A DNA stretch of 63,875 nucleotides, filler included, from Octopus bimaculoides (Eukaryota): the NCBI RefSeq assembly GCF_001194135.2. It is 8 parts of 8 records of this genome, joined end to end, with 100 filler letters (N's around TTAATTAATTAA, not from the genome) between each part and the next. Parts side by side here need not be neighbours in the genome. Positions count along the whole stretch, not along the records: positions 6,091 to 21,279 come from NC_068989.1; positions 21,380 to 27,401 come from NC_068993.1; positions 27,502 to 37,152 come from NW_026302627.1; positions 37,253 to 54,481 come from NC_068983.1; positions 54,582 to 60,462 come from NC_068996.1; 3 more parts are not named here. The stretch is one strand, 5' to 3'. A program made the translations under genes and the position numbers. How positions within the stretch are numbered: position 1 is the stretch's first letter; every line of letters starts with the position of its first letter. Positions 6,091 through 59,444 of the stretch are shown here, one piece after another. The notes under the pieces are model-generated. The model made no database searches and was not told where the DNA came from. It worked only from the letters and a program-made list of their open reading frames with translations.

Positions 6091-6370
6091 GGTTTTTGTC
6101 TCTCTCACCAAGGTCAGCAGCTATCGAACGCCGACGAAGGGAAATAACCCTGAAATCCGGATCCGTTCGTGCTGCAGATCGTGGTGAGAGGGATAACTTC
6201 CCTTGGCAAACAGGACACAGTCGTGTGTCGATAAGCCAGCTGGAGGAGATGTCCTCCTGGGGCTAAAAGCAACAGTAACATCCACCCCTAGGGGTCAGCC
6301 ACACTTAAGTGGCAATATACTACACTTTATCGTGCAGTTACTGTTAATACTTCATTTAGAGAATTAACAT
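6091..6370 (+). mobile_element. Penelope-like pseudo-LTR / retrozyme-like structured element
   Basis: GC-richer island carrying the HHR motif plus four short hairpins and a 12-bp palindrome, ending in a (TA)n tract; 5' side lost in a gap. Confidence 0.6.
6125..6169 (+). ncRNA. Type I hammerhead ribozyme motif (minimal, palindromic stem III; U4C core variant)
   Basis: Stem I CGAACG(6125-30)/CGTTCG(6164-69); core CCGACGA(6131-37); stem II AGGG-aaataa-CCCT; GAAA(6152-55); palindrome TCCGGA; cleavage triplet ATC, predicted cut after 6163. Confidence 0.8.
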
Positions 6371-6374
6371 TGCT

Positions 6375-6407
<33 letters not shown>

Positions 6408-6424
6408 ATGTCTGTATTATGAAA

Positions 6425-6560
6425 GCCCCTGGCCCAGTGGTTAGAGCGTCGGGTTCACAGTAATGAGGTAGTGAGTTCGATTTCTACATCAGGTTGTGTG
6501 CTGTGTTTTTGTGCAAGACACTTTCTTTCATGTTGTTCCAGTTCACTCAGCTGTAGAAAT
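6425..6560 (+). mobile_element. tRNA-derived SINE, family C
   Basis: A-box TGGCCCAGTGG (6430-6440), B-box GTTCGATTT (6475-6483), then CORE-like gtgtttttgtgcaagacact and tcactcagctgtagaaatgagt. Confidence 0.75.
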
Positions 6561-6755
6561 GAGTTGTGACGTTACTAGTTGTGACGTCATTTTGCTTTTC
6601 CTTTGAATAACATTGGTGGCGGGGAGAGGGGAAGCTGGTATGCATGAGCGACTGCTTGTTTTCCATAAAACAACCTTGCCCGGGACTGTGCCTCGGAAGG
6701 TAACTTTCTAAATGCAATGCATTGGTCATTCATAACTGAAGGGCGTCATATATAA

Positions 6756-6792
<37 letters not shown>

Positions 6793-7253
6793 TGAATAGA
6801 CAGCACTCGCAATCAATGCATTCATTTGGTGTCTTAAGTATTTAATATGTGGTTAACACACCATCATATTATTTAAAACATCGTGGGTTTGCAAGACGTC
6901 CACATTATAAGCAGCAACGTATCAAGATGGAAGCCTGGAAACATGTGGTTAGGAAGCTAGCTTCTTACTACCCACAAGCTCCTCTGAGTGTATTGTATCT
7001 TTTCCTTATTTTCATATAAGGAAAAGGTTCACAATCACAATGAACGAAATCTAGTTACTGCTCCAATGAGCTGAGGGATTGTTTAAAAAGCATGTCTGTA
7101 AGATGGAAGCAGGAAAGACTCTACGAGTGATTGCTTTCGGTTCGACAACGTAGCGTTTTATTGAAAATTCGTCACCATCGAAATGTTCAATTCCCTGAAT
7201 GAAATTTGTTAGACAGAAAGGATAAGGAAGTCCGCATAAATACAAAATGCATG

Positions 7254-7326
<73 letters not shown>

Positions 7327-7394
7327 ACTATATATATATATACGATACACACACATACACACACACACACATACATACATACATCATACATACA

Positions 7395-7456
<62 letters not shown>

Positions 7457-8254
7457 NNNNNNNNNNNNNNNNNNNNNNNNNNNNNNNNNNNNNNNNNNNN
7501 NNNNNNNNNNNNNNNNNNNNNNNNNNNNNNNNNNNNNNNNNNNNNNNNNNNNNNNNNNNNNNNNNNNNNNNNNNNNNNNNNNNNNNNNNNNNNNNNNNNN
7601 NNNNNNNNNNNNNNNNNNNNNNNNNNNNNNNNNNNNNNNNNNNNNNNNNNNNNNNNNNNNNNNNNNNNNNNNNNNNNNNNNNNNNNNNNNNNNNNNNTAT
7701 ATATAGTATATATTGTGTGTACAAATAGATGTACGCCTGCTACCCTTATGATTAGAGCTCCACGTAGATTATCATATTCCGATCTGCTTCTACTATAATG
7801 GTTAAGTAAATCCTATGGTAAATAGTATTACTAGTTGTGAAATACGGACCAAATGCAAGAGGGATTAAGATAAACACAAATTTATATTATTAGTATCTAG
7901 GTATGTTTCACCAATATGGTTGCTTGGAATCTTGCATTGGGTAATCCAATGGCATTTTTAGGCTTAAAGAGAATGCATCTTTATGGAACTTTTTATTGTA
8001 TTACGTTACAGTTAACCAGATATCTAGTGTACTTAGTGTAATCAAATGCTAGTTTTGTGTGACTTAAAACAATAAAGTATTTCCTGATGATCCGTTCTGT
8101 ATAAGAATACATATGCCCTTGGAACACAAAATGCAGGGTTCCAAGCAGCATGGATTGTTGAATCTACGTAGAAACTTATTGTGTAAATATGTTTTTACCT
8201 TACCTACACATACACGCACACAGATGTATGCATATATGTATGTATGCATGAATA

Positions 8255-8340
<86 letters not shown>

Positions 8341-8772
8341 TGTCAATATGTATATATATATATATGTATGTAGATAGATAGATAGATAGATAGATAGATG
8401 GGGATATATATATATATAGATAGATTGGGATAGATAGATAGATAAATAGACAGACAGTTATAAAAAATTTGGAAAATGTGTTCGTTTATGCATTAGGGAG
8501 AGTGTATATTTAGGCTTATGCCGTGTAAGCGCAATGGTGACAATGCGTCATAACTTAATAGTTTAAGAAATGCATATTCATAAAATAAGTACTAAAGTTT
8601 ACAACAATTACGGCGGTTCATATTCTTGTTCATATTCTTGTCTACATTATTGAAGATCGTATGCCAGCATGACCGTAATTCAATAATACAAGAATAATTG
8701 AATGCAAATATATACTAAATTTAATTATTTATATAATCATAATCGTAAAAATTACCATATCATAAAAACTGA

Positions 8773-8990
8773 GGCGGTAAGCTGGCAGAATCGTTAACAC
8801 GCTGGGCAAAATGCTTAGCGGCATTTGGTCCGCCTTTATGTACTGTATTCATATACCACCGAGGTCAACTTAGCCTTTTATCCTTTCCGAGTCGGTAAAA
8901 TAAGTATCAGTTGCTCACTGAGGTTGATGTTATCGCCTTACCCCATCCCACGAAATTTCTGGCCTTGAACCAAAATTTGAAATTAATGTT
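8773..8990 (+). mobile_element. tRNA-derived SINE, family A
   Basis: Near full-length copy: ggcggtaagctggcagaatcgtta ... gccttttatcctttccgagtcggtaaaataagtatcag ... ggccttgaaccaaaatttgaaa. Confidence 0.88.
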
Positions 8991-9089
8991 TGAGATAACT
9001 GACTCTTTACTTACACATTGACTCCACTTTCGCTTAGTATTTGCAAGTTCACGCATACAAATACAAACATATGCTCTAGAGTATAACTT

Positions 9090-9600
9090 TAGACTGCAAC
9101 CGGTGGTGGGTCCCTGGTTCGGCAACTCGTGGGTTTTGTGGAACTTTGAACTATTGTTACTCTTAGCTACTGTTTTGATCAAGTCTACTCCGACTCTGAT
9201 TAATAGTATCTCTCAGTGTTCATCCCAGGTATGGTTTAATTAACATGAAATGGAAAAAATGTTTAAGCACAATCCCTCACTATGCTGTGAGTGCCTCAAA
9301 AAGGGTAAAAGTTAGTGCAGTCAACCTTGACTCCAAGAGTAGTTCCCCCTCAGGAAGTCTGGTGCCCTCTTTGATACCCTTCGGCAACTCCAGAGTAAGT
9401 AGAGCCCTCTAGCGCCTAAGAAAAGGCTACTACAATGTAAAACATGCAGCTTACTGGTCACTACAGGCGTCTTAGCCTGTTGAGCCATTGTGGTCAGATC
9501 TCAAAGTCTAAAGTGTGAGATCCAATGGAACGGATCAACTCTCACTTTCACACTACTAAGCGCGAAAAGAAACAAAGCCCTGCTGTGTCAAGTGTCGGTT
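9090..9600 (+). mobile_element. Probable 5' UTR/start of a LINE (RTE-like), truncated
   Basis: GC-richer non-coding island ending in ATGGAACGGATCAACTCTCAC..., which resembles RTE 5' regions from memory; no RT present. Confidence 0.3.
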
Positions 9601-9967
9601 TACATACATAAGTATATACTTATCTATATTCATAAGATCTTAGAATTCATTTCATTCTGGTAGCGAAATAATTAATTCATTTACTATTGTTTAAGTAGTT
9701 TTACAGTTTTATCTGAGTTTATAAATTAATTATCAACTGATTCAAAATTAATAATTGATATATGCAACGAAACAAGTAATTAATATACTAAGATACAATT
9801 AAAAGTGTTCAACCAAGAGCAGACAAAGCAAGAGAGAAAGAGACGGTAAAACAGCTAAAAACATTGATGTGACAAACTTTGCTACCTCTTGAAATACTTC
9901 CTTTCCCACCTCATTGTGTTTAGATCATCACTTTCAAATTTATCTTGTTAGACAAATTTAACTTATA

Positions 9968-10385
9968 GGCGCAGGCGTGGCTGTGTGGTAAGTAGCTTGC
10001 CTACCAACCACAAGATTCCGGGTTCTGTCCCACTGCGTGGCATCTTGGGTAAGTGTTTTCTACTATAGCCTCGGAGTGGATTTGGGCAAGTGTCTTCTAC
10101 TATAGCTTTGTGAGTGGATTTGGTAGACGGAAACTGAAAGAAGCCCGTCGTATATATGTGTATGTATGTATATATGTGTGTGTTTGTGTCTGTGTTTGTT
10201 CCCCCAACATCGCTTGACAACCGATGCTGGTGTGTTTACGTCCCCGTAACTTAGCGGTTCGGCAAGGAGGCCGATAAAATAAGTGCTAGGCTTACAAAGA
10301 ATAAGTTCTGGGGTCGATTTGTTCGACTAAAGGCGGTGCTCCAGCATGGCTGCAGTCAATTGACTGAAACAAATAAAAGAAAAGA
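9968..10385 (+). mobile_element. SINE family B, full-length
   Basis: tRNA-like head ggcgcaggcgtggctgtgtggtaag...ccgggttctgtccc, CORE-like cttgggcaagtgtcttctactatagc (duplicated internally), internal microsatellite ~10150-10195, tail ending gactgaaacaaataaaaga. Confidence 0.92.
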
Positions 10386-10822
10386 AAATAATAGAAAGAA
10401 TATAAATACGCCTCTCTCTCTCTCTCTCTCTCTCNNNNNNNNNNNNNNNNNNNNNNNNNNNNNNNNNNNNNNNNNNNNNNNNNNNNNNNNNNNNNNNNNN
10501 NNNNNNNNNNNNNNNNNNNNNNNNNNNNNNNNNNNNNNNNNNNNNNNNNNNNNNNNNNNNNNNNNNNNNNNNNNNNNNNNNNNNNNNNNNNNNNNNNNNN
10601 NNNNNNNNNNNNNNNNNNNNNNNNNNNNNNNNNNNNNNNNNNNNNNNNNNNNNNNNNNNNNNNNNNNNNNNNNNNNNNNNNNNNNNNNNNNNNNNNNNNN
10701 NNNNNNNNNNNNNNNNNNNNNNNNNNNNNNNNNNNNNNNNNNNNNNNNNNNNNNNNNNNNNNNNNNNNNNNNNNNNNNNNNNNNNNNNNNNNNNNNNNNN
10801 NNNNNNNNNNNNNNNNNNNNNN

Positions 10823-10890
<68 letters not shown>

Positions 10891-10954
10891 TTATTTGTTT
10901 TATAAAAGGCAGAAGGTCTGAAACTTGAGCGGTAAGAGGGCGCTACGCGGTTAC

Positions 10955-11172
10955 ATCAACCATTTTGCAACTCGCCGCCTTGGATTTGAAATTTTGAGTC
11001 CTTGTACGATATTGGATTGATCCAAAATCTAATCCGTTCGTGCCAGTCAGAAGGCCAAATATCCCTGAAAGTTTCATCCAAATCCATCCAGCGGTTTTTG
11101 AGATATCTCGTCCATGGACAAACAAACACGATTGAAAACAATACCTCCGCTTTCGATAAGGCTGAGGTAATT
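10955..11172 (+). mobile_element. Helentron-associated (HINE/DINE-like) non-autonomous element, 3' part
   Basis: aaagtttcatccaaatccatccagcggtttttgagatat...acaaacaaac...tgaaaacaatACCTC-hairpin-GAGGTaatt (11143-11168), the typical subterminal hairpin end followed by TT. Confidence 0.6.
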
Positions 11173-11247
11173 AAAACAAACTTATCGATAGCCTGGATAT
11201 ACTATAAAAAAAGCTTTTAATACTCTACAACATAGTTGAATTAAGAA

Positions 11248-12215
11248 ATGTCTGAAATGTATAAAATGGCACTTATTCTGCGAAACTTCTTGTCTGTATG
11301 TATGAGATCATGGAGAAACACACTGACATTGAACAGTGGCAATGAATCTCTCAATGCTGGAGATGTAAGAATTACATGCGTCATTTTCCAGGGTGACTTT
11401 CTATCACCACTCCGTTTTTGTCTAGCCTTAATACCTCTCTCGAAATTGCTCGATGAATACAATATGGCTGTAAAATGTTTGATAAACATATAAATCATCT
11501 CTTTTACATGAATGATTTAAAGTTCTTTGCAAAAAATGACCAACAGCTACAGGGCTTACTAGTAATAGTTAAACAATTCAGTGATGACATCCGGATGCAA
11601 TTTGGCCTCGATAAAAGTGCAAAGAAAAACTGACAGAAACATCCAATGTTAATCTTGGTCAGTAGAATGTCGTAAAGGAGTTAGAACCAGCGGAAAACTA
11701 TAAATACTTAGGGGTATTTGAAAGTGATGGAATCAAACATTCAATGATGAGGGAAAGGATCAGAGAGAACGTTATCACAGGGTAAGGTCAATACTCAAGA
11801 CAGTGCTGAATGCAAGAAACACCATCGAAGCGATCAATACTTGCGTGATTTACAGTTTCAATATCATTAACAGGTCAATTACTGAAATAAGTAATCTTGA
11901 CAGAAAAATATGAAATTTGTTGACATTACATAGAATGCACCACCTTAAGGCAGATAGAGAACGACTTTACCTGCCAAGAAAAGAGGGTAGCCGTGGAATT
12001 TTACAACTGGAATTAACAATGAAGATTGCCACAATTGTCCTAAACACCTACCTGAAAAACTCTGTTGACTGGATGTTAAAACTTGTCTTAAAGCAACAAA
12101 ATAAGAAAACATCATACTCAGTAACAAAACAGGCAAAGAAATATCTAAGTGAATTCCAAATACAACAAATCCAAGAATTAGATGTACTGGAAACAGTGTG
12201 TCACCTGAGACCTAC
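11248..12215 (+). mobile_element. Non-LTR retrotransposon RT fragment, R4/Dong-like (RLE class), inactivated
   Basis: Across frameshifts: IFQGDFLSPLRFCLAL, INHLFYMNDLKFFAK (YMDD decayed to YMND), MQFGLDK, YKYLG, HRMHHLKADRERLYLPRKEGSRG. Confidence 0.85.
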
Positions 12216-12244
12216 TTTCCATTTCTTCATGCTACAGCTAAGTA

Positions 12245-12355
12245 ATTCTTCTTCTTTTTCTTTTTCATTTCTTCTTCTTCTTCTTCTTCTTCTTCTTCTT
12301 CTTCTTCTTCTTCTTCTTCTTCTTCTTCTTCTTCTTCTTCTTCTTCTTCTTCTTC

Positions 12356-12398
<43 letters not shown>

Positions 12399-12424
12399 TT
12401 GTAGTAGTAGTAGTGATGGTGGTG

Positions 12425-12484
<60 letters not shown>

Positions 12485-12485
12485 A
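12245..12485. repeat. Compound microsatellite (CTT)n(ATT)n(AGT)(GGT)n(AGT)n
   Basis: Directly visible. Confidence 0.97.
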
Positions 12486-14201
12486 CGGTGGTGTCGTGGT
12501 TTTGTATTGTGGTTTGTAACTTAGACATGTGGCCAACGAGTTGCCAGAGAGGGTGTTAGTCGATTGCACTAACTGCAGTACTTGACCGCTTCCTATATTT
12601 CATCGAACATCAAAGGGATGAAAGGCAAACTTAACCAAGGAGAGGTTTTGAAGGTGGAATATAACAAAATGGAATTAATACCTCAGAGTAATATGACCAT
12701 CATAATACGGTGTTATTTACTACCGCCCGCTAAAACACAGGTGTCTGAACTAACTTCATTTTCGGAGCTCACTGCTTTCTGTGTCTCTGTGTGTGCGGTA
12801 TATTTCGTTATGGAGAGGCAAATAGAGAGATGATAACATTGTTACACATATGTATGTTTGGAAATTCTGTCTTAGTCAAAGTGACAGGAAAAAAAAACAC
12901 GCGCTTCATATAATATAGATAAAGATAAATATGATAGCCACGTTTTCCTCGTCATATATTATTGTTTTATCAGAAATGCTAAATATTTTCTTTTGTCTGT
13001 TTGTTATTTGTTTTCTTGTATTTTTATTTTAACTTTGCTGTGTTTTTATGCAGCTACATAACGTAAAGTTTTGTGCAGAGAAAAATATATTCCTGGACAA
13101 TTCTTTCTGGATTTATCTTTATCAGCAAAATGGTGACAAAAAAAAAGAAAGAAAAAAGCAAACTGATCGATCATTGATAACACCAAATCGATAAAATTCT
13201 ACTACTTTCTATCTTCCGGCGCTAGATAGAAATAGAGAATGAAATGTTTCGTTCAATCTTGATATCAGCTGAGTTTTAAAGAATTTATTCTTTCTAGGCG
13301 TGTAATTTCTGAAGTCAATACGACCTCGTATTTTGCCTATGCTTTTTGTGTGTGTATTACAAGCCATGCATTTGAATACAATGTAAACATTTCAAATTAT
13401 TTATGTGCATATCAGTTTCTCTAACCGAAGCAGTTACCACTATTTCATTATTTCCCATTTATAGCCGTTTTAGATAGCTTTAGCCGTTTTGTATCGTATT
13501 TCTCTTGATATACGCAGTTTTTTGTTTCAATAAATTTTGAAAACAATAATTTATTGAAATATCTTTGTTATTATTTTAGCTGGTGTTTGGAACATAAATT
13601 AGTAAAGAATTTTGACAGAAACTATTAAGATGACTTTAAATAGGGAGGCTCGTATCATAGGACCAGGACCGGTTTCCGGAGGGTTGATAACAAAAGTGTT
13701 AATCATTTTGTCACTAATATTCATATCACGAATATCTAATACAGGACAACATCGATTTTCCAGAACCTTTGGTGCCAATGTCCTTCTGATTACTGATTTT
13801 TCCAAACCAATGGAGGTCGCTTCAAAATTAAACAAATATTGAATTTATTTAAATGATTAAATGTAATACAGATACATGTAAATTAGTGTAAACTACACAA
13901 ACTATTATACAAATATATTTATACTGTACTCTGTAACATGCTGTGTGACAGAGCCGCGCAGTATCTCGTGGCCGTGTTGATTTGATATTTCAGCTCGTAA
14001 ATAAGGGTTTATAGACGATCAAATATAAGCAGCCAGTTTAAAACAATGTGCCGCAGGTGTGCTGATATTTGAAAAACAATTTAAGCTTTTAGAACATCCA
14101 TTCCTTGGCTAGCGCACGTTGAAAAACGTTCTAATAAAAATTCTTTACGAAGAGTTCCCGTGTTCCAGTAAATTTTTCATTAGATCGCTTGTGTGTCACG
14201 A

Positions 14202-14278
14202 TGTAAAGACCATTGCGTGATCTGATACATAGTCGTTTTGTAAAGACCATTGCGTGATCTGATACATAGTCGTTTTGT
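14202..14278. repeat. Perfect 37-bp tandem duplication
   Basis: tgtaaagaccattgcgtgatctgatacatagtcgttt at 14202 and 14239. Confidence 0.9.
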
Positions 14279-14296
14279 GAGTGTTTATGAGTGTGC

Positions 14297-14372
<76 letters not shown>

Positions 14373-16574
14373 GAACTTCGGAAAAAAGTTCCCATACATA
14401 GGATAGAGTAACGTTATGCTGTAAGTGCCCAACTAATAGAGTCATTAAAATGCCCGCTCAATGAGCTCTGAGTTACATCTCACTGAAATCAACCTAGCCT
14501 GTTATCCTTGCTGGGTCGATAAATAAAGTCTTAACTATGTATTTGGGGTGATTCTTGTCTTTCTCTTTCCCTAAAATTGTCATATCTAGAGTGGGATGTG
14601 GCCCATCAATCTAAATACTCAAGAAACGCCGTATGTCGCCACAGTGCTCCTACGATACCATTTAGCGTCTGCGACTGAGACAAGGCGAGTTAAAAGGCTA
14701 TATATAACCCAAGGAGAATAGCTTAAGCAAGAATTTTAATGAAATTTAATGAACATAACCCTAAAAGTAAACAAACACTTTTGCATGTTATCGTATCTTC
14801 ATAGTTTACGTATTTTTCTCGACTACTTTATGAAAAATGTCCTGGTTAATGAGTTGACATATTGGAGGAAAACTTCAACAATTACTAACTATCAAAAAAA
14901 ACATTGTATAAGTAAGCTGACATTCAAAATTAAACTAATAATTCGAATTATTTACTGCATGGGTCATCTAGTATCATGATTATATATCCTACTTATTTGT
15001 TCACTTTACGTAAACATTTTGTTTTATTCCCGTAATAATGTTGCTTGAAATATTTGCTACCAGGATGCAATAATTTTAAACATAATGTAATTTATATTCA
15101 TATATCTTCATGAATAGATAAACTGTTTCTTCGTTCTCTTAATATAAACATTGTTTAATTCCCATCATGCAGTAAGCATTAAGCCTGAAATATTGGACAC
15201 AGAGTGTTCCGGCAAAATTTGACGGTTTTTAATGTCTTTTATTCGGGAAGAGCTTGGTATGCTGGTGATCAGTTAACGGTGTTGGAGAGCATAAAGATTA
15301 AAATTATGGTTGAGAAAAAGTTAGCTGACATGGAGGACAGAAAGCCGTTGGGAGCGATAAAATAAGTACCAGTTGAGCACTGTGGTCGATGTAATTGACG
15401 CTTCCCCGAAATTGCTGGCCTTGTGCCAAAACTTGGACTCAGCATAAATCACCTGATTGTGACTCGTGTTCTGTGCTATCAGAGCTCATGGCAGAGATGT
15501 CTTTTTGTGTGTATATCCACATGGTTATGGTCTCAACGAAATAAAGTAGAGGAATGGCTGAGAGTTCTAAGCAGAAAGAGCTACATTTTAAGGAATGGAG
15601 AAGTAGACGTGATAGCTTTAACTTTTCCATAGGATTTAGAAACAAAGGTAAAAGGTACTTTCACGGGGGAAACGAAACTATGGCGCATCTCAGCTTGCTT
15701 GGTGCATAGCTTTTACTAAAGAAAACACCTTAGAGAGTAATATAAAATGAGTGATCCACTGAAGAGAAATGTATGTTTTATCACAAATTCAAACGTTCAG
15801 AAATGTTTCAAAAGATCGATAAAATTCCGAAAAAATTAACCCCTTCTCGCCATCCCCCTTTTCTGCTTTTATAGAAACATAAAACGGAAGGAAGGATGAA
15901 TTTGGAAACTTTCATTCATTTTTTTCTTTTTAATGCGAAATTGATATCTTTGTATAATGGTTAAAAGACGGGAAACAAAACGAGAAGATGAAAATCCCTC
16001 TTGATAGTATATTTTGTGTCCCTGTTTTTATAGTTCTTTATAAAACCCATAATTACAGAGATAATTTCTATTTCAAAATACATAGATTTTACATTTTACT
16101 CTCCAAGTGTTTATGTATTTGATTAATTTCTTCAGTTTCTTTTAAGTTTATATTTTAGCAGCTGCTGGTAGAGGAATATCACTTAGGAGATATCACGCTA
16201 AGCAATAAGTGATCCATGAACATTTAAATAATCTGTAAGAGTAAATTCTCTCAGGATATAGTTATTTCTTAAATGTTATGGTATATTTACTGATGTATAT
16301 ACGCACAACCCTTTTTCGTTCGCAATTTCATACTGATGTCAGTGATTTCCGTTTAAGAAAGAAAAAGAATACTGAATTCTATAAATGTTTATATATTCTG
16401 TTAAATGGCAACCAGAAATAATGCAATTAATTGCTTCTTCAGAATTTCTACATATTCTTCAGGTACATTTCGATATTCAAATAAACTTTATATTTTCATA
16501 GTTTTTCGTGAATCGTACTTTGATCATTCGCAGCGATCAAAATTCCCTAGAGATATGATCAAATAATAAATCAT

Positions 16575-16760
16575 TTGATCATGCACTTCTTTTGCTCTCA
16601 CTACCGATAAATTTACCAATGGAAAGGCTTACAGTAGGTCGCTTGACTACTAGAAATAGCAATTGTATCTCATACAAATACTACCTCTCCATTTTAAGAA
16701 AAGAGTGCACATATGATGATAATGTCGTCACTGATGCACTATGTCTGAAACAAAAAGAAA
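16575..16760 (+). mobile_element. Possible Gypsy-type RNase H remnant
   Basis: FDHALL...GRL...DNVVTDAL resembles TDH..L...RL.RW...DNVVADALS; heavily decayed. Confidence 0.22.
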
Positions 16761-17170
16761 TCGACAAATTGCTCTGTCAGGATAGACCTGGAGTTACACA
16801 ACAACAGCCTCACTAAGTATGTATATGTATAAGAAGCCTTTTACTGAATTTAAGTAGTAAAGTTTTGTCGGTAGACTCGGGTTAATGCAATGTAGCGAGA
16901 TAACGGAACGTGTAAAGTATTGATAACTACTTTTATGTCACATATTTGATTTGAATCGTCTAGTTCTCAATAATTAGGCAAGCTTCTGTACAGATTTAGC
17001 GTTTCAAATATCACTTATGTTTGATGTATTGGTCAAATGAAGGCGGAAGTAGAAAACACAGTCTCACTCTGCTACACAATGCGACCGAACCTCATGTTTA
17101 GGAAGCAAATTTCCTATTAGCATAACTACATTTCCAGCATGTTTTTCATTATTTTTATACCTTCGTAATA

Positions 17171-48391: not shown

Positions 48392-48435
<44 letters not shown>

Positions 48436-48885
48436 GTATATATGTATGTGTGTATATATATATATATGCGTATGTGTGTGTGAGAATGTATGTATGTATA
48501 TCTTACAATCACAAAACAGCACATTACACACACAGGCACACGCACACAAGTGAGTGTGTAAGTGATGTACAGTTCCATGATGGTAAAATGAAGAAAAGTT
48601 TACTCCATCTTTTGAGAGATAACTATTATTTAATAGACACAATACAGGTTGTTACGTACCACCAATATTGTTTTTATGCTGATAACATGCCAAGTAATGA
48701 ATTATAGCATGTGTGATAGCCCAACATAGTCATCAGACACAAACCACATAGTATAACGAACTAAAAATTGAATGATCTGTGTTGGGATGTCACTTATTTT
48801 ATAATTCATTATTTGGCATGCTCTCTGCATAAGATACTATCAGTAGTACATAGAAACATTATCGCGTTCATTAAATAATATATAT

Positions 48886-48918
<33 letters not shown>

Positions 48919-49296
48919 GTTATAGTTACAGTATATTCTGTTAAGAACGTGGTAGAGTACAGTATAAAGCTCATCCACCTTCAATTTATCTTGTGTTGTC
49001 CAATACCAATACTCTACGCACTTCCAGGTTTGAGTTTGAGCATCTGTCATGTGTGAATAGAGAATTGAAAAAATTGGAATCGGCAAGAGGTGGGTACAGT
49101 CGGACATTTATTTTTTTAATCACTACAATTGTTTCCACACAACGTAGTTCTCCAGGCATGCAGGTACTTGATTATACAACTGTTTCCCTGCATTATGAAA
49201 TCTAGTTGTGTTTCTTCAGGTGATATGTAAATATTGTCTCCGTAAATTTAAAATCCTCGGCTTCAAATCTACAGTTTTACCTTGTATGTATGTATG

Positions 49297-49327
<31 letters not shown>

Positions 49328-49356
49328 GTAGGTAGGTAGGTAGGTTTGTAGGTAGG

Positions 49357-49413
<57 letters not shown>

Positions 49414-50289
49414 TGGTTGATTGATTCATTGACTGATTGATTGATTGAGTGATTGATTGATTGAGTGACTGATATAACCGCATGGCTTTCAACAACCCAG
49501 TTACTTGTCAAATAAACGACGGAAAATAGAATCCGAAACCAATGCTTGGTAGAATAAACCACCAAAGAGCTGAGAGAAATTCTGTTATTTTCCATTGTTA
49601 ACAATTTTATGATACCGTTAAAATACAAAGAAAGTAGGGAAATACAAAATGTACAAAAACGATAGGTTTTGATCAAAATCGTCAATGAAAGCGTGGCTTT
49701 TATTTCAAAACTGACATGATGCGTTTTCCCACCTTTAGTCTAGTTCATTTTGGTTGGCAGTAAAGAAGAAATATATCAGAAGAAACTTTCAATTTGAAAG
49801 CTTGAAAAGAGGTGATAGGCCTTTCAATAAATAAACAAATAAATAAAGTCTCGCTGAGAATAAACTCAAAAAGCTAGAAGAGAAATGTTGTACCATCCAG
49901 GAGCGGAATAGTACAAAGGGCTGGATAAAATAGTCAAGACAGCAGTATAAATGCAAACATCATACAGGTGAAACTAAAGTTGCGTGTGAGAGGGCTGAAA
50001 AAATAATAATAGTTTACAGCTTTTCAAGTACAATGTAATAAAAAAAAATCTGTACCATTCGCACAAACACAGCTTATATACTTCAATATTTGGAAAATCC
50101 TTTCAAAGAAAATATTAAAACTAAACCCCCAAGCAGCCCTCCAGCAATATCTGCTGTTATGGGGATTGATAAATTAAATATTAGTGAAATACTGCGAGCG
50201 ATTTAATCGCCTGTATCTCTTAACCAAATTTCTGACTATTTTCCAAGCCAGAATTTATCATTTATATTATTATATGAAATCTTACATTG

Positions 50290-50645
50290 TCTGAATGGAG
50301 ATGAAACCAAAATTAGATAACTACAATTACTTTGGAAGTCATATCTCCAAATCCAAAAATGATACAGAAATGAAAATTGGTAAAGCTTGGTAAGTGCTTA
50401 ATTCTTTGAATGCTTGGGTAAGATATAGAATTCTAATCTTCCACGTAAAACTGAAATAATCGTTTCCAGAGGTGCAGCTGAATCAATTTTAGTTTATGGT
50501 TCGATAACAGGGACATTTACAGCTTCCATGAAGAAAATATTGAATAACACGTACAACGCCAGAATGCTTCATTCAATTCTAAACATCTCATAGCGTTAAC
50601 ACAAAGTGTTATACCAAGACATCCCATCTATATCATACAGGATTC
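50290..50645 (+). mobile_element. RTE-clade LINE fragment (post-RT region)
   Basis: NYFGSHI...IGKAW*VLNSL, then NLPRKT...AESILVYGSITGTFTASMKKIL...RMLHSILNIS*. Confidence 0.8.
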
Positions 50646-51210
50646 GAGTTCTGTCTGGAAAACATTAGTGCTGTATTTGATTTCTTAATGTGCTTTATAT
50701 TGTTTTAAGCTTACTTTGAAAATCGTGATTATATTAACGTAATCTAATTTACTTTATTAAATCTGCAAGGTCAGATTTGTGTCATGTTATTATCGAGTGT
50801 CTGTTTGAGGAGCAACTTTCCTATCTCATAAATGTTCTAATTTCGTCTGAAAAAATTAGGGCGTTATAAGATTTCTTGAATTTGTTTATATCATATTTAA
50901 GAGTAGTTTGGAAGGTATTATTGCGTTAACAAAATATAATATTCGTTATTATATTCAAAAGGCTAGATTTTATGTCCGTTATTAAATTGAAGAGGCTGGA
51001 TTTAATGTTCGTTATTAAATCAAGACGGTCGAAGGTTAGTTCCATGTTTTGCTACCATGGTTGTTTGATGTTGTATTATTTAAGTTAGAGTTGATGAAAT
51101 GCGCTTTCAACTACATGCGCCTAACTACATCCCCGGTTTTCTCTTGTCGATTCCCGATCCAGAGATCATTTGAATTATTTAGAATGCTTTTTGGCAGAGT
51201 GGTCTGTGTG
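50644..51210 (-). mobile_element. Penelope-like element ORF N-terminal region (DKT/DKG-motif domain), two tandem remnants
   Basis: VVRRM*LKAHF (51096-51128), LITNIK, NTFQTTLKYDINKFKKSYNALIFSDEIR / NIYEIGK; second copy DLIK*IRLR..DFQSKLK..IKKS..LMFPDRTR (50644-50780). Confidence 0.78.
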
Positions 51211-51420
51211 ATATATTTATATATTTAGTAAAGTCTCATTTTGCAATATTACGAGCGCTCGACTATAATGGGTCTCTCTATATCTCAACATATCTCAATC
51301 CATTTGAACGATTGTCTGACAAGTAATGTATATGTTGCATGGCGCAACCAGTCATTAAACGATGACGAGAATATCATAGGAGGGAGCTGTCTCTCGTGTC
51401 AGTTTTCAGCGTCTGTCTTT

Positions 51421-51480
51421 CCAGCCTCTGTAACTGATGAGGTGATAACTACTCCGAAATGGATGCATCTAACAGTCTGG
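51421..51480 (+). ncRNA. Type I hammerhead ribozyme motif, canonical core
   Basis: CTGATGA (51434-40); stem II GG.G/C.CC; GAAA (51456-59); stem III ATG-gatg-CAT; ATC cleavage triplet, cut after 51469; stem I CTGTAA/TAACAG (5/6) extended by CCAG/CTGG across an internal loop. Confidence 0.75.
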
Positions 51481-51849
51481 TTAGGGTAACTGTGAGCTGA
51501 CTCGGTGTATTTACATTTATCTGTCTACTCCGAGAAATTTCTTCCATGACAAAATATAGTGAATTACATCCTTACGAGTCCGAATACGCTTCAGATATAT
51601 TTGAAGTGGTAACAAATTTCTGTTGCAAATCTTTGAAACTATGTCTGGATACATAATATGAATATTGTGATTGCTGAAACAACCTCTTCATATACGCTAT
51701 GTGCGCGTTTGTAAATTAGAAATCGTTCAAACGTTATCATAGTATAAAGTGTGTAATATAGAAACGAGATTATGTTGTATCCATTTAGTAAATAATATCA
51801 AAAACATTAAAATATATCAATCGATAGAAATATATAATACAATATATAT

Positions 51850-52060
51850 TTAGAAAACCATACAGAACAGGTATCTGGTGGAGCTATCAGAGGTTTCTTG
51901 CATAGAACTCATTCAGACTGTATGTTCAGAAGTATTAAACAAATATACTTCGAAAATATGTAAGAGTACTTCTGCTTCTTTGATGAAGAAAAAATATTTC
52001 GATAATACTTGTTACATATTCTTCAGTATCTCAATATACATGTTCTTGTTGGAAAACTAG
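51850..52060 (+). mobile_element. Penelope-like RT thumb remnant
   Basis: GAIRGFLHRTHSDC (51880-51921) resembles the PLE thumb motif (V/I)xxxxHRA..IC. Confidence 0.45.
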
Positions 52061-52189
52061 GAAGAATAAATATGCTGTATAAGATCGAGGAAGCTACATG
52101 CAAAAAAAAAATAAAAGAAACAAAAGTAGCCATTTTCTTCTGGTAATGAAAAACATTAATTCAGACAAATAGTACCAATGTGAAAATAA

Positions 52190-52360
52190 CCAGAAGCTCT
52201 GAACTCTCTAAAATTTGAAGAAACTTCATTTTCTTTACACGGTAGATAACAATAACAGAGCAAAAACGTTTATAACCAAGACTTATAATATATAAATACA
52301 AGATCGGAAATATTCGTAAAATAACAGCACTTCGGAAAACATACTCTAGGAAACTTGGGA
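52190..52360 (+). mobile_element. Penelope-like GIY-YIG C-terminal remnant
   Basis: SELSKI*, NRAKTF, INTRSEIFVK*QHFGKHTLGNL (52292-52357) vs the pattern LNKRSE..SKCRH.NK..L.NL. Confidence 0.55.
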
Positions 52361-52829
52361 TTGTTAATATCTTCTCGAACAAAGCCGTAGTATGGCCATC
52401 TGAAATTGATTCATTGTATATTTTTTTCATTTCACCTTTGACATCATTCGGTCGTCTGTCATGCCACTACTTTATTTCTTCAACCAAATCTCCTCACCTT
52501 CCTCCACGGCTCTTATATTCTATTTTCTATTGATGTTGCATCAATCTAATTCCACAATTGTGTTGCGACAATTTTCCAAAAAAATAGTTCTTTCATCACA
52601 ACATTTCCGACATTACCGACTGACCTAATAATGTGGAAATAAATTACATATACTAAGATTTTTTTCTTAACGGATTTCATTTTAAATATATTGCTCTTTT
52701 ACAACATAAGACGGAGGCGTGACGGCGAGCTAAGAAGCTTGCTTCTCAATCACATGGTTCCTGAGCCCGAAAACCCTAACCGCTAAACCACACGAATTCA
52801 CAGAATCAAATATATATGAATATGCAATG

Positions 52830-53149
52830 CAGTAATCCCTCGCTATATCGCGTTTCAGCTATCGCGGTTCTTCTATTGTGGTTCATCTATCGCAGTTTAT
52901 TATTTAAGCTTACGTTGATTCCTCTGTGATCTTGTTTTGCATTTATAATAAAATATAGATGTTTTCGATCTGGTTTGGATTCTTTGCCATTAAATTTGAT
53001 GGCAAAGAATCCAAACTAGATCGAAAACATCTATAAATATATACAAATTATAAATTACTAAAAAAAAATATATATTCAATACAGTACAGATTTTAACGTA
53101 TCGCGGGGGATTTCGGAACGTAACACTCGTGAGAGTCGAGGGATTACTG
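52830..53149. mobile_element. Tigger/pogo-type MITE carrying a nested palindrome
   Basis: CAGTAATCCCTCG / cgagggattactg-TA TIRs; colinear with 17171-17419 except for the insert. Confidence 0.85.
52954..53035. repeat. 82-bp loopless palindrome (41-bp arms, 2 mismatches)
   Basis: tatagatgttttcgatctggtttggattctttgccattaaa | tttgatggcaaagaatccaaactagatcgaaaacatctata. Confidence 0.95.
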
Positions 53150-53673
53150 TACAATGATTTACATTTCTGCTGGTGTATGATGTTTCCCTGTTTAAATACG
53201 TATATCTTTATATATCCTTCATGGTTGCGTTATTTTATTCATATCAGCGTATCAATGTTTATTTGTCTGCTCGTTTATTTATTTACAAGCATGGGTATAT
53301 AACAAATACTGGCTGTTAAGATTGATTCAGAATTCATTATACATACACAATGCTTTAATTTTTGTTTTCGTAATCACGGATAACAGGCATTTATGACACA
53401 TCACGTTCTGTCTTACCGTAATAATATTTTCGTAAATACGGAATACACAATTTCAAAAGTATCTCCTTAGTATATTTTCTTCAGCGTGATTCATCATAAT
53501 CTAGAAACTTCTAGTTACAAAATAATGTTCTCAATTTCAAATTCCATATATATATATATATATATATATACCGGAGTAAGCACATGCAATGTGCAACAAG
53601 GTGGAAAAAAGAGTACTCAAATACCAGAGGTAGAGTAATATGCTTTATTTAAAAGCAGCAGAAATATAACAAA

Positions 53674-53719
53674 AAAACCGTTACTCTGAGTTTCACGTTC
53701 CCGTTCATCGGACAGTTTT
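53674..53719 (-). ncRNA. Type I hammerhead ribozyme motif, mirror copy on the minus strand
   Basis: Exact reverse complement of 53735-53780. Confidence 0.83.
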
Positions 53720-53734
53720 GTTAGAAAATCTAAC

Positions 53735-53780
53735 AAAACTGTCCGATGAACGGGAACGTGAAACTCAGAGTAACGGTTTT
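53735..53780 (+). ncRNA. Type I hammerhead ribozyme motif (U4C core variant)
   Basis: Stem I AAAACTGT/ACGGTTTT (8 bp, one G-U); core CCGATGA (53743-49); stem II ACG-GGAA-CGT (GNRA loop); GAAA (53760-63); quasi-palindromic CTCAGAG; GTA triplet, cut after 53772. Confidence 0.85.
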
Positions 53781-53854
53781 TTTGTTNNNNNNNNNNNNNN
53801 NNNNNNNNNNNNNNNNTATACATGCATATATACGTACATATATTCTTTTCTACT

Positions 53855-54306
53855 CTAGACACAAGGCACGAAATTTTTTTTTGAGGGGAGGGGCAGTCGA
53901 TTAAATCGACCCAACTACGCAACTGGTACTTAATTTATCAACCCCCTCCAAAGAATTAAAGACAAAGTCGACCGCAGTGGAATTTGAACTCAGAACGTAA
54001 GGGCAGACGAAGTGCCGCTAAGTATTTCCCCCGGCGTGGTAACGATTCTGCCAGCTCACTACCTTAAAAATATCCCTACAACCTTCTAAATATTCTTTTC
54101 TACGATAGCCACAAGGCCCGGAATTTGTGGGGAGGGAGCCAGTCGATTAGATCGACCCAGTATGCAACTGGTACTTAATTTATCGACCCCGAAAGGATGA
54201 AAAGAAAAATCAACCTCGGCGGAATTTGAACTCAGAATGTAAAGACAGACGAAATACCGCTAAGCATTTCGCTCAGCATGGTAACGTTCGCGCCAACTCG
54301 CCGCCG
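53855..54306 (-). mobile_element. Two tandem SINE family A copies (53855-54063; 54110-54306)
   Basis: Both match the family A consensus in the same orientation. Confidence 0.9.
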
Positions 54307-54581
54307 TAAATGAAAGCAGATGTTACATGTTATTGAATATTTCATATCGGAAATCCGAAATAGGTGTGGCTGCAATAAATTCCGCAATCGGTCAGTGGAT
54401 GCAAATCATATGTCTGAAAGCTACCAGACCGAATATAGGATGACCAGATATTGAATGATCGATAAATCCCAACACTGAGAANNNNNNNNNNNNNNNNNNN
54501 NNNNNNNNNNNNNNNNNNNNNNNNNTTAATTAATTAANNNNNNNNNNNNNNNNNNNNNNNNNNNNNNNNNNNNNNNNNNNN

Positions 54582-54629
<48 letters not shown>

Positions 54630-54633
54630 CATA

Positions 54634-55473
54634 CAGAGTGCAATGGGTAAATAGTTGCCGTTTTATATTCTTAATTTCGCACATGCGCATTGTTTGTTTT
54701 CGACTTTGTCTGCTACACAGTGTAGTAGGGTCCGTTGGGCACTCTCTGTGGGAAAGACAACACCATGACACAATTCATTCTGTCATAAATTTGGAAACGA
54801 CATGCTGCACTACTTGGTATTCGCACCGGAAGGCCCAATACGAATATTTGAGAGTGTTTGGGTGTTAATCTGAAATCCGAGGACAGTGCAATATGAGGAC
54901 ATGTACCGTGAGTGATAAAATTCAAACATCCAGTGAACATCATGGTGTTTTGTGTGATCACTAGTGATGGCGACATTATGCCTCCATTCATTCTCCGACA
55001 TGGCCTCGGACTCAATACGGCGGCTTACATCAATGCCTGGATGAGGTAGTGCTGCCTTGGGTCAAGAGGGTGGCTGCCACACAAGCACGAGCACCCAGTC
55101 ATGGCTGCCAGACAATTTCTACGTCCATATCATCGCTAACATCCGGCCACCTAATTCCCCAGTCTGCAACCCTCTTTATTATTATATGTAAGGCGCAGTT
55201 GAGTAAGAGACCAATAAAAAAACCTTGTAACACCAAAGATTATGGCAGCATTCACAAACTTAAACAGGGAGACCATCGAGAAGATGTGCAGGAGATTCCG
55301 AAGTCGTTTGGCGGCGGTGATTGAAGCCAATGGTGGTTTTATTGAACAATATTACTCTTTAGTATTTCCACATATTTTTATACAGTTTTGGTAAATATAT
55401 CTCTTACCATGAGATGTCAGTGTTATTTTCATTTTTGCGTAATTAAGACGATAGTTTAATTCACCGCACCCTG
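54634..55473 (+). mobile_element. Tc1/mariner transposon, maT (DD37D)-like, internally deleted
   Basis: TA-cagagtgc... / ...gcaccctg-TA ends; remnants KFKHPVNIMVFCVITSDGDIMPPFI, VLPWVKRVAA, PPNSPVCNPL, RRFRSRLAAVIEANGGFIE. DD37D assignment is from family resemblance; the spacing cannot be counted in this deleted copy. Confidence 0.82.
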
Positions 55474-55485
55474 TACACACACACA

Positions 55486-55565
<80 letters not shown>

Positions 55566-56245
55566 CATACATATATACATACATAGATACATAGATACAC
55601 ACACACACACACAATACGAGTGCATGTGGTCATGTATAAGTGTTTGGCCCCGAAATGTGTGTGGCACAGACTATGTCGTTCGTAAACAACAACAAAATCA
55701 TATATACTTCGAGAAATTCACCAATCACAGCTCAGACCATCGTTTTCTCATTAGGTAAAAATTATCAAATTTTAAACCCCCCGTTAAATTTTTCTAAACT
55801 TCTGGAATAAACGAATCCCAAACTCGGATTCAGTGCGAAAAAGTACATCAATATACCAAATTTGAGAAATTTCACTTCATTTTAAAATTTCAGACTCTGT
55901 GTTACAGCAACAGAAAAGCTTTCCCTATTCATCTCTACCACTTTTCGCTTCACTCATGGTAAATTTTTCTCCGTATATATATATTCATCACACTTTCTAT
56001 TTCTGTCTATAAAGGTTTGTCGCTCACGCTGAGGGTAGGTGTGTGCGTGCGTGCGCGTGTGTGTGTATGCGTGTATGCAGGTGTGTAAGGAATTTCATTA
56101 GGGCGACAGAGTGATTTATATATTAAAAAAAAAACGGTTTATAAAAAGTGATTTATTTTAAAAGCACACTTTTCTGTTAGTAAATGTCTTTTATTACACA
56201 CACACACACGGACTCGGCTAATACAGAGTGGAGGTTAAAAATTTT

Positions 56246-56277
<32 letters not shown>

Positions 56278-57029
56278 NNNNNNNNNNNNNNNNNNNNNNN
56301 NNNNNNNNNNNNNNNNNNNNNNNNNNNNNNNNNNNNNNNNNNNNNNNNNNNNNNNNNNNNNNNNNNNNNNNNNNNNNNNNNNNNNNNNNNNNNNNNNNNN
56401 NNNNNNNNNNNNNNNNNNNNNNNNNNNNNNNNNNNNNNNNNNNNNNNNNNNNNNNNNNNNNNNNNNNNNNNNNNNNNNNNNNNNNNNNNNNNNNNNNNNN
56501 NNNNNNNNNNNNNNNNNNNNNNNNNNNNNNNNNNNNNNNNNNNNNNNNNNNNNNNNNNNNNNNNNNNNNNNNNNNNNNNNNNNNNNNNNNNNNNNNNNNN
56601 NNNNNNNNNNNNNNNNNNNNNNNNNNNNNNNNNNNNNNNNNNNNNNNNNNNNNNNNNNNNNNNNNNNNNNNNNNNNNNNNNNNNNNNNNNNNNNNNNNNN
56701 NNNNNNNNNNNNNNNNNNNNNNNNNNNNNNNNNNNNNNNNNNNNNNNNNNNNNNNNNNNNNNNNNNNNNNNNNNNNNNNCTGCGTTTCATTTTCTGTTTG
56801 AAAACAAAGGAAATGGAGATTTATTTATTTTTAACTTTCAAGGCTTTTCACATCGTTTTTAAATGCGTAGTGAGAAATAAATAAATGAATGAAAATAAAA
56901 AATAAAAAAACTTGACCGAAATCTACACTGTTTGTGGAAGTGGGGTTTCAAAATTCATAAATTTTCCTTTTTGTTTTTTTTTTCCATTTCTAAGGCAGAG
57001 GCGTCTCCCATTCTTTTTGAGTGTATAGT

Positions 57030-57077
57030 GGGGGCGGGGGCATCGGTCCGGAAGTGGGGGAAGGAGGGTTATATAAA
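57030..57077 (+). promoter_or_regulatory. Promoter-like cluster: GC box, ETS site, TATA
   Basis: GGGGGCGGGGG (57030-40), CCGGAAGT (57048-55), TATATAAA (57070-77) in canonical order; no downstream gene identified. Confidence 0.25.
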
Positions 57078-57494
57078 TTTTCAATATTTTGTCTTCTTAA
57101 AAAAATCCTCCTCTATCATTTGCAAAGGTGTGGTTAAAGAAAAGTCATTTGCAAAAGTGTGGTGAAAGAAAACAAAAATTTGAAACATCCTCGTCAAAAC
57201 CCATTCATGTGGGTGTGTTATTCTAAAAATACCACTAATGCATTCTATTCTATTATGAAGATTACCCAGCAACAACGGGATGCTAAGTTAGTGCGCGCGC
57301 GTGTGTGCAGATATATTTATATATGTACGTCCGTAAGCATATGTATATATACACACGCATGTGTGTGTGTTAGTTCATTTATGCATATACACTTGAAAAG
57401 ACGTGTGGCATATATATATTCATATATACGCATAACTACGTATAAATTTATAAAATGCACACATATTTATATATCCAAATGTAGAATATATATT

Positions 57495-57840
57495 GTGGCG
57501 TGGCTGTGTCGTCAGTAGTTTGCAACCCAACCACACGGTTCCGGGTTCAGTCCCACTGCGTGGCACGTTGGGCAAGTATTTTCTACTATATACATCAGCT
57601 CGCCAAAGCCTCATGAGTGGATAATAGAAAATACAAGTGTGTGTGCAAGCGCGCGTGTTAGTAATTTTGTGCGTGTCCCGCTATCGCTTGACAACCGGTG
57701 TTAGTGTGCTTACGTCCCTGTAATTTAGCGGTGTTCGTCAACAGAGCAGTTCCGGGGTCAATTCATTCGACGAAAAATTTAAGACGGTACCCCAGCTTGG
57801 CCGCAGTCCAGTGAGTGAAACAGGTAAAAGTTAAAAGGCA
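57495..57840 (+). mobile_element. SINE family B, diverged full-length
   Basis: gtggcgtggctgtgtc...ccgggttcagtcccactgcgtggcacgttgggcaagt...gaaacaggtaaaag. Confidence 0.85.
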
Positions 57841-57846
57841 AAAGAC

Positions 57847-57881
<35 letters not shown>

Positions 57882-58570
57882 CGTTTATGTATGCGTAGTG
57901 CATACATCCGTATGTACGTATGGACTTATCTTCGACGCTGATCGCGAGGATTCAGCGAGTAAATGGATGCCTAAATGGTTGAGTATTCCACAGACAAGTG
58001 TACTCTTAAAGGACCTCTCAGTGACAATCGGTGACAGTACGTCTGCCCCTAGTTATATTTGAAATACGGGTACGTATTCGGTCTACCTAATTTCATTCTG
58101 AAGATAGGAGTTGATCCGGGGTTGTGACAACGCGCAACACTCACTCAAAATCCGACACAGTGGAGCCGAACATACCAATTCATGCTCATACAATTAGTCT
58201 ACACATAGCACTTGATGGGTACACACGCATGTGTGTGTGTGAATGATGGGTACACACGCATATGTGTGTGTGTGAATGCATATATCATAGATAACTTTCT
58301 TTCTTTCTTTCCTTATTATTTATTTATTTATTATTTAGATACATACATTATATATATATTGGTATGTATACACACATACATATATCCCATGTATATATTT
58401 ATCTTCTTTATATATACCTGTATCACGTATATATATGTATTATGAATATAGTATAAATACATTATATATAACACACACACAATCACACACATGCAATTAT
58501 ATGTAATATAATAAATGTATTATATATGTATATATATAATAAAGAAAATATATTCTTTTATTGTTGTTAA

Positions 58571-58944
58571 TCTTTTACTTGTTTCAGTCATTAGACTGCG
58601 GCCATGCTGGAGCACCACCTTTAGTCGAACAAATCGACCCCAGGTCTTATCCCTTGTCAGCCGAGTACTTATTCTATCGGTTTCCTTTTGCCGAAACGCT
58701 AGTCTACGAAGACGTAAATACACCAACATCGATTGTCAAGTGACGGTGGCGGGGACAACAAAGACACACAAACATATATATAAATATATATAAACGATGG
58801 ACTTCTTTCAATTTCCGTCTACCAAACCCACTCACAAGGCTTTTGTCGGCCCGAGGCTAAGACACCTGTCCAACGTGCCACGCAGTGGGACTGACCCTAG
58901 AATCATGTGGTTGGGAAGCAAGCTTCTTACCACACAGCCACGCC
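58571..58944 (-). mobile_element. SINE family B, full-length
   Basis: Reverse complement of the 9968-10385 unit. Confidence 0.9.
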
Positions 58945-59112
58945 AATATTAAATACGTTTTATATACTATATTACAATATTACACGGATACATAAATTAA
59001 TCTTTGTTTTCATGTTTAGTTATAATAAAAAAACAATATTACATAAATAAATCTGATGGGTTCTCTCTCCTTAAGTAGAATACAAATTTATTTTTAAACA
59101 AAACATTCTGTT

Positions 59113-59157
59113 GATAGTGACTTCGAAGTTTCAGCGGTAAACTATCGTCAGACTGCC
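59113..59157 (-). ncRNA. Type I hammerhead motif, canonical core, weak stems
   Basis: Minus strand: agt CTGACGA t-agt-ttacc-gct GAAA CTTCGAAG(palindrome) TC act; GTC triplet. Confidence 0.55.
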
Positions 59158-59444
59158 GAAGATAGCTTAGCTGGCCGAAACTTTGAAATTACCGTCAGTA
59201 ATATTTTTGTTTCAGAATATATATGTTTAAATATATATAATATATACATACTACATATGCATTGTGTGTGTGTGTTTATGTTTGTGTGTGTGTGTGTGTG
59301 CATGCGCGCGCACGCAGGCGACGTGCTGGCAGAATTGCGAGCACAACGGGCGAAATGCTTAGAGGTATTGAATTCTGATTTAAAATTCCGCCGAGGTCGG
59401 CCCTCTCCCCCAAAATTTCAGGCCTTGTGCCTATAGTAGAAAGA

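Follow-up and report, generated by a model that had tools for sequence, protein, structure and literature searches.

Can a hammerhead ribozyme core with C instead of U at position 4 be the settled state of a repeat family, or does it mark copies in decay? The question is raised by a stretch of 63,875 nucleotides of Octopus bimaculoides DNA (assembly GCF_001194135.2; hereafter the window), in which an earlier note had reported the heptamer CCGANGA in the place of the CUGANGA core at four loci. All four heptamers are present (6131, 33784, 53743 with a mirror copy at 53711, and 59156). Real hammerhead folds stand at two of these loci (6131, and 53743 together with its mirror), and 33784 and 59156 are chance-like on structure. 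In the repeat family of the 53.7-kb element, C at position 4 (C4) is fixed as the normal state and is not decay. The change itself, U4C, has already been described as an uncommon natural variant. Core positions are numbered, and the NUH rule for the cleavage site is applied, as in PMC3088659.

Hammerhead folds with C at position 4

The window, animal DNA with 8.4% N, is rich in AT and in microsatellites. A strict descriptor of the type I hammerhead, allowing any base at position 4 and requiring a stem I of at least 3 bp, identified three sites, at 6131 (+), 53743 (+), and 53711 (−), every one of them with C4. One hundred block-wise dinucleotide shuffles yielded no site with at least 4, 3, and 3 bp in stems I, II, and III. 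In a relaxed scan of 213 core-like sites the same three ranked highest (scores of 19.6, 19.6, and 18.7), and their scores were matched in none of 200 shuffles; nor did any of the 200 contain a CCGANGA site scoring 14.6 or more. Bare CYGANGA heptamers are weak evidence, as the window holds 42 of them against 27.75 ± 4.68 expected. The descriptor confirmed that the copies at 6.1 and 53.7 kb retain intact stems I to III, GAAA, and an NUH triplet (AUC and GUA, respectively), as the earlier note had described. The features at these loci, with the evidence for each, are as follows.

6092 to 6375, + strand: structured element of about 285 nucleotides (nt) around the 6131 hammerhead (fold z scores)
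6096 to 6196, + strand: long stem I, interrupted by an internal loop and totaling about 30 bp (fold energy against shuffles)
6125 to 6169, + strand: type I hammerhead fold with a C4 core (descriptor, shuffle controls)
53571 to 53725, − strand: 3' end of a Hydra-clade-like Penelope element, comprising a hammerhead, a tail of about 100 nt with AATAAA, and then (TA)n (descriptor; tail likeness by eye)
53729 to 53786, + strand: inverted second hammerhead copy, running into an N gap (descriptor, arm complementarity)

At all three sites three helices surround the core, with the open end in stem I, and C3, G5, A6, G8, A9, G12-A13-A14, A15.1-U16.1, and H17 are present; the U that defines position 4 of a type I hammerhead is absent. 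Judged by sequence and predicted fold, the C4 copies are a hammerhead variant and not canonical members of the class.

In the 53743 copy, stem I is formed by 53735 to 53742 with 53773 to 53780, the core occupies 53743 to 53749 (C4 at 53744), and stem II (53750 to 53759) is closed by a GGAA loop, which we take to be of GNRA type. GAAA follows at 53760 to 53763, stem III is palindromic, and the predicted cut falls after A53772. The 53711 copy has its core at 53711 to 53705, C4 at 53710, and a predicted cut after A53682. Both have a stem I of 8 bp, a stem II of 3 bp, GAAA, and the site GUA, and they are the arms of a single inverted repeat of 58 nt with 100% complementarity. They form one insertion, so that the window contains two independent intact loci.

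This insertion is likely the 3' end of a Hydra-clade Penelope-like element (PLE), as judged from the RNA motif and tail, because it shares stem III, a similar tail, insertion in (TA)n, and an inverted truncated partner with that clade. The copy breaks off at the hammerhead and has no attached frame for a reverse transcriptase with GIY-YIG domain. Hydra-clade hammerheads have a type I layout with a short stem II and sit about 100 nt from the 3' end (PMC8557442), as does the octopus motif, whose stem III is palindromic. Its ACUC-N-GAGU stem III is also found in 5 of the 26 Hydra-clade rows of File S2 of that paper. Hydra-2_aMil has the same stem I bases beside the core and the same cut-site A, and by eye the octopus tail is similar to those of Hydra-2_Amil and Hydra-2_Ajap. 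Nearly all Hydra-clade elements have (TA)n as their insertion site, and PLEs typically come with inverted 5'-truncated partners (PMC8557442); the 53.7-kb element lies in (TA)n with such a partner, and contigs of four public runs (described below) show many different junctions and loose ends in (TA)n across its family. The Penelope-like context proposed in the earlier note is therefore borne out at 53.7 kb, where stem III, tail, and (TA)n match the Hydra clade. The two differ in that U4 is present in 26 of 26 Hydra-clade rows of File S2. The published octopus element Hydra-1_oBim also has U4 (PMC8557442), and C4 is thus not universal in octopus. C4 in the 53.7-kb family is likely to be derived, by a change from U to C.

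On sequence comparison the hammerhead at 6131 is a second one, unrelated to the 53.7-kb motif and carrying the same U4C change. Its stem I pairs 6125 to 6130 with 6164 to 6169 (6 bp), the core lies at 6131 to 6137, stem II at 6138 to 6151 (4 bp with a 6-nt loop), and GAAA at 6152 to 6155. Helix III consists of 2 bp and a palindromic tetraloop and extends to 6162, and the site AUC has its predicted cut after C6163. The extended stem I folds at −53.9 kcal/mol (z = −7.0), a stability equaled in none of 200 shuffles, and the element of about 285 nt has a z score of −6.5 as a whole and −3.0 for the part without the hammerhead. Its left end is hidden in an N gap and its right end passes into (TA)n. 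The earlier note had invoked minimal PLE hammerheads, a class that does not fit 6131, given its long extended stem I and its helices of 6, 4, and 2 bp with a palindromic tetraloop, which conform to the canonical metazoan type I layout (PMC4209133). In helix lengths and in its highly paired unit 6131 is also like the non-LTR (long terminal repeat) retrozymes (PMC7229834), which have canonical type I hammerheads in highly paired units of 170 to 400 nt; it differs from them in C4 and in having a single visible unit, as no second, tandem copy is visible in the window and an N gap covers the left side. The element may be retrozyme-like or pLTR-like. When the 6.1-kb frame was translated as a proxy for a family consensus, it gave a match to a leafhopper protein, which is repetitive, and the match was judged to be chance.

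With the minimal hammerheads of metazoan PLEs (PMC4209133), the octopus motifs share a palindromic stem III and predicted cleavage as dimers; those elements also occur mostly as solo truncated copies and opposite-strand pairs, as here. They have U4 in 56 of 56 representatives, found with a descriptor that required U4, and the core variant reported among them is U3-A8.

A search of the whole window against Rfam gave no hammerhead among the best 150 of 226 matches, and the Rfam hammerhead models had no match at E ≤ 10 in 6090 to 6380, 53640 to 53727, or 59090 to 59210. This failure is not caused by C4, because a U4 copy at 59151 is likewise missed.

Position 4 across the 53.7-kb family

Whether C4 is sporadic or shared was examined with assembled contigs from four public runs, which come from four studies (three DNA runs and one putative RNA run) and were placed on 228 bases of the 53.7-kb element at 80% likeness, with differences tabulated from 3%. 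At least half of the element's sampled words were contained in 18 of 24 listed public runs; two insect-metagenome runs with a small share of them do not enter the comparison. The three DNA runs placed 2,620, 6,504, and 6,102 contigs and the putative RNA run 244; relatives less than 80% alike lie outside this placement, each DNA run has between 801 and 2,026 contigs that fit both arms, and rare variants are lost from contigs. Summed depth over the core reached 4 to 7 × 10^5 per arm in two runs, compared with 23 to 53 for single long pieces, and although these values are not a copy number, the family is very abundant.

Neither C>T at 53744 nor G>A at 53710 was listed in any of the four runs, which places T at position 4 below 3% and C4 in at least 97% of the depth placed on the family core. 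Variant detection works in this neighborhood, as N7, three bases from position 4, varies at 17 to 22% and 12 to 15% on the two arms in the DNA runs. In the three DNA runs the unpaired center of stem III carries two alternative bases (17 to 22% and 10 to 11%), and a change of a stem I G-U pair to A-U reaches 28 to 36%. No conserved core base is among the variants listed for the DNA runs. The changes are one-sided and keep pairing, or fall on the free N7 and stem III center; no two-sided compensatory change and one pair-breaking variant were observed. Since T remains below 3% in four of four runs while tolerant positions vary at 12 to 36%, U4C is fixed in this one family. Of the suggestion that C4 is too consistent for random decay, this part stands, C4 being the consensus state of the 53.7-kb repeat and not sporadic; the appeal to four independent loci does not, as only two hold.

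The earlier note had further reasoned that U4C creates a CpG whose usual decay would restore CUGA. This argument is weak: 5-methylcytosine is reportedly all but absent from octopus transposons (PMC9476566), the observed/expected ratio of CpG in the window is 0.88, and the stem II CpG of the 53.7-kb element shows only 1 to 3% C>T in the DNA runs. With little methylation and a stem II CpG that barely decays, the persistence of CG at positions 4 and 5 needs no special explanation; the fixation of C4 in a master copy does.

In the open-access literature no genomic repeat family with consensus C4 and no survey of octopus hammerheads were found; the Dataset S1 alignments of PMC3088659, the O. vulgaris repeat library (Zenodo), and bioRxiv supplements lie outside the scope of the negative on fixed C4, and Lunse et al. 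2017, who surveyed PLE variants with a short stem III, could already list such families. The claim that canonical searches overlook C4 is correct for PLE-focused ones, which demanded CUGANGA (PMC8557442, methods); a CYGANGA descriptor, with matches in viromes, is already in print (PMC13481778). The viroid and virome examples of U4C (Ambros and Flores 1998, cited through PMC3088659; PMC13481778) show the same base change as a minority, whereas in the 53.7-kb family, a high-copy genomic repeat, it predominates. Family motifs gave no pattern match in metagenome contigs, prokaryote genomes, or viral contigs. Looser scans of viral contigs returned four C4 and nine U4 stretches, none of the 13 with hammerhead stems, and these were attributed to chance.

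Accounts of the C4 core

The reading that we prefer, at a probability of about 0.5, is that the 53.7-kb family has a predicted slow, dimer- and protein-dependent ribozyme that is kept by selection in its master copies. The family would have descended from a U4 ancestor and U4C become fixed, with selection maintaining the hammerhead fold in the masters. Cleavage by a C4 hammerhead would be slow and would require the pairing of two copies by way of the palindromic stem III, and the element's own protein probably assists. A weak ribozyme would mean fewer cuts in host transcripts by insertions, so that the family could reach a high copy number. In computed folds the stem III strands self-pair at −10.9 kcal/mol (6131) and −7.4 kcal/mol (53743), and monomers with an open core make up less than 1% of those sampled. 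Published PLE hammerheads cleave weakly and as dimers, one of them cleaves only with the PLE protein (PMC11167929), and in a viroid the U4C variant is far less active in vitro, yet active enough in vivo (PMC3088659). That C4 traps the monomer in an inactive fold was rejected as a general explanation, as such a fold gains 2.2 kcal/mol from C4 at 6131 and gains none at 53743.

Several observations weigh against this reading. No PLE reading frame or domain was found in the 138 open reading frames scanned of 550 candidates in the window. A transcript of the 53.7-kb inverted copy would, by computation, fold into a 58-bp hairpin, and family depth drops several-fold just 5' of the core (53712 to 53735); for these two reasons the 53.7-kb copy itself is predicted to be inert. 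For most copies of the family the start seems to lie inside stem I or immediately ahead of it, and the inverted junctions are many and varied. Pair 6 of distal stem I is broken by a variant at 9 to 10% in the DNA runs, and although all three sites that vary above 10% fall on tolerant positions (8 of 38), with a chance probability of 0.007, that figure is post hoc and excludes the distal stem I site. Hammerhead mutants leave PLE insertion in vitro unimpaired (PMC11167929), and in deep mutagenesis of one hammerhead all single mutants of the CUGA turn had low activity (PMC9901934). Finally, PMC3088659 lists a primer for an Aedes hammerhead with CCGAUGA, and its figure of inactive RNAs includes an Aedes construct, which may be that one; the legend of active variants does not name Aedes, and canonical Aedes monomers are also inactive there.

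The main rival is a dead ribozyme, to which we give tentative credence: one master gained U4C, lost cleavage, and amplified anyway, the fold persisting through youth or through protein recognition of its shape. The unimpaired insertion of hammerhead mutants and the low activity of CUGA-turn mutants cited above both favor it, as does the spread of Naiad elements without canonical hammerheads (PMC8557442), and the 53.7-kb arms are identical, so the insertion is young. A dead ribozyme fits less well with subfamily variation that spares every conserved base of the core and is concentrated at N7 and the center of stem III, positions set by catalysis and dimer pairing, or with the same change in the second, unrelated intact hammerhead at 6131. 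That Naiads might hide C4 hammerheads was considered and set aside: five CCGANGA-type words occur at eight places in the supplement of PMC8557442, none in a hammerhead context in the text listed, where line breaks could hide matches. It is quite improbable that U4C is a lineage-wide, fully working variant, used by most octopod families and restored to activity by a host factor or a compensating contact. Two unrelated intact folds in 64 kb carry C4, each with A-U as the basal pair of stem II. Such an account is opposed by the U4 cores at 59151 and in Hydra-1_oBim, by the sampling of one family, and by the absence of C-to-U changes reaching 3% at position 4 in the single putative RNA run, which also leaves C-to-U editing unsupported as a rescue of U4; the earlier suggestion of a lineage-wide variant is accordingly unproven. 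Sporadic decay or chance, with each C4 either a mutation private to one dead copy or a heptamer arisen by chance, is highly improbable overall. It suits 33784 and 59156, since shuffles often reach their fold scores, and could apply to 6131, whose family was outside the sampling, whereas for the 53.7-kb family it is refuted by T below 3% in all four runs.

The choice between the slow, assisted ribozyme that we prefer and the dead one bears on what PLE hammerheads do. They cut poorly in vitro and are dispensable for insertion in the sole reconstituted system. A high-copy family in which a core change known to slow cleavage is fixed, alongside relatives in other animals that retain U4, offers a natural experiment. 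Should the C4 family still cleave, U4 would be less essential than assumed and genome counts based on CUGANGA would overlook whole families; should it fail to cleave, a dead ribozyme conserved in shape would have spread with a PLE family, pointing to a noncatalytic role.

A lead on RNA editing came from the putative RNA run, X18, a single run whose type was guessed and which has no matched DNA. Cephalopods edit their RNA heavily. A-to-G differences, on one strand or the other, occur in X18 at five sites (53667, 53674, 53675, 53681, and 53682) at levels above those of the three DNA runs. They reach 20% at the cut-site base A17 (at most 0.04% in the DNA runs), 27% at the first base of stem I (1 to 2%), 16% at 53667 (about 0.1%), and 3 to 4% at two antisense sites (at most 0.23%). 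This pattern fits A-to-I editing of a long hairpin predicted for the inverted copies; alternatively, the sites could reflect an expressed divergent copy. G17 strongly impairs minimal hammerheads (PMC3884650). A wider scheme, which we consider unlikely, is that several unrelated octopod families fixed U4C independently, giving the genome a very large set of throttled hammerheads whose cleavage would need dimers or protein and would be lowered further by host A-to-I editing at A17. If true, independent fixation of U4C would be a convergent attenuation of ribozymes tied to cephalopod RNA editing.

Other core-like sites and features of the window

The remaining two loci of the earlier note failed to show three helices with GAAA. 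The features in these regions are as follows.

33784 to 33810, + strand: degenerate motif resembling a minimal hammerhead (layout compared with the minimal hammerhead consensus of PMC4209133)
59116 to 59157, − strand: hammerhead with a canonical U4 core (relaxed scan)
59156 to 59215, + strand: inverted, diverged partner of the 59151 copy (arm alignment)

The hammerhead-like fold claimed for all four loci thus holds at 6131 and at 53743/53711 and not at the other two. At 33784 a C4 core is followed by an extra A, a 4-bp stem II, GGAA where GAAA is expected, CG-UC, and a stem I of 1 bp. The layout fits the minimal PLE hammerheads (consensus in Fig. S3 of PMC4209133), apart from GGAA and the 1-bp stem I. 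Its relaxed score of 7.7 is reached by a CCGANGA site in 91 of 200 shuffles, and the 33.8-kb frames, translated as a proxy for a family consensus, gave no match.

The 59151 copy on the − strand, which is absent from the earlier note, has a CUGACGA core (59151 to 59145), stems I and II of 3 bp, GAAA, a 10-nt palindromic stem III that resembles those of several Hydra-clade elements (PMC8557442), and a GUC site. Over about 65 nt its reverse complement aligns with 59156 (+), which is for this reason a real homolog of it. The latter forms neither stem I nor stem III by itself, and its score of 6.7 is reached in 129 of 200 shuffles. The CC at 59156 and 59157 overlaps the partner's 5' stem I strand (59152 to 59157), and this leading CC may be junction sequence from that stem and not core. 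Both 33784 and 59156 are degenerate and of little weight for C4. The relaxed score of the 59151 copy (14.6) is next after that of a candidate site at 4125 (+), which is AT-rich with a core of the U3-A8 type and one mismatch in GAAA and scores 15.8.

Several of the many N gaps in the window (for example, 6036 to 6047) are split by one short palindrome of the TTAATTAA type, which is probably an assembly gap marker. A near-perfect 40-bp hairpin at 52953 to 53036 matches only microRNA models, below their thresholds, and is probably a small inverted-repeat element. Frames at 11245 to 12210 (+) resemble, by eye, pieces of another non-LTR retrotransposon, without a Pfam match. The one clear protein domain of the window belongs to a broken reverse transcriptase of a long interspersed nuclear element at 60563 to 61861 (+) (Pfam RVT_1, E = 5e-11; domain at 60563 to 61435), the best named relative of which, from Argonauta hians, shares 55% identity with it.

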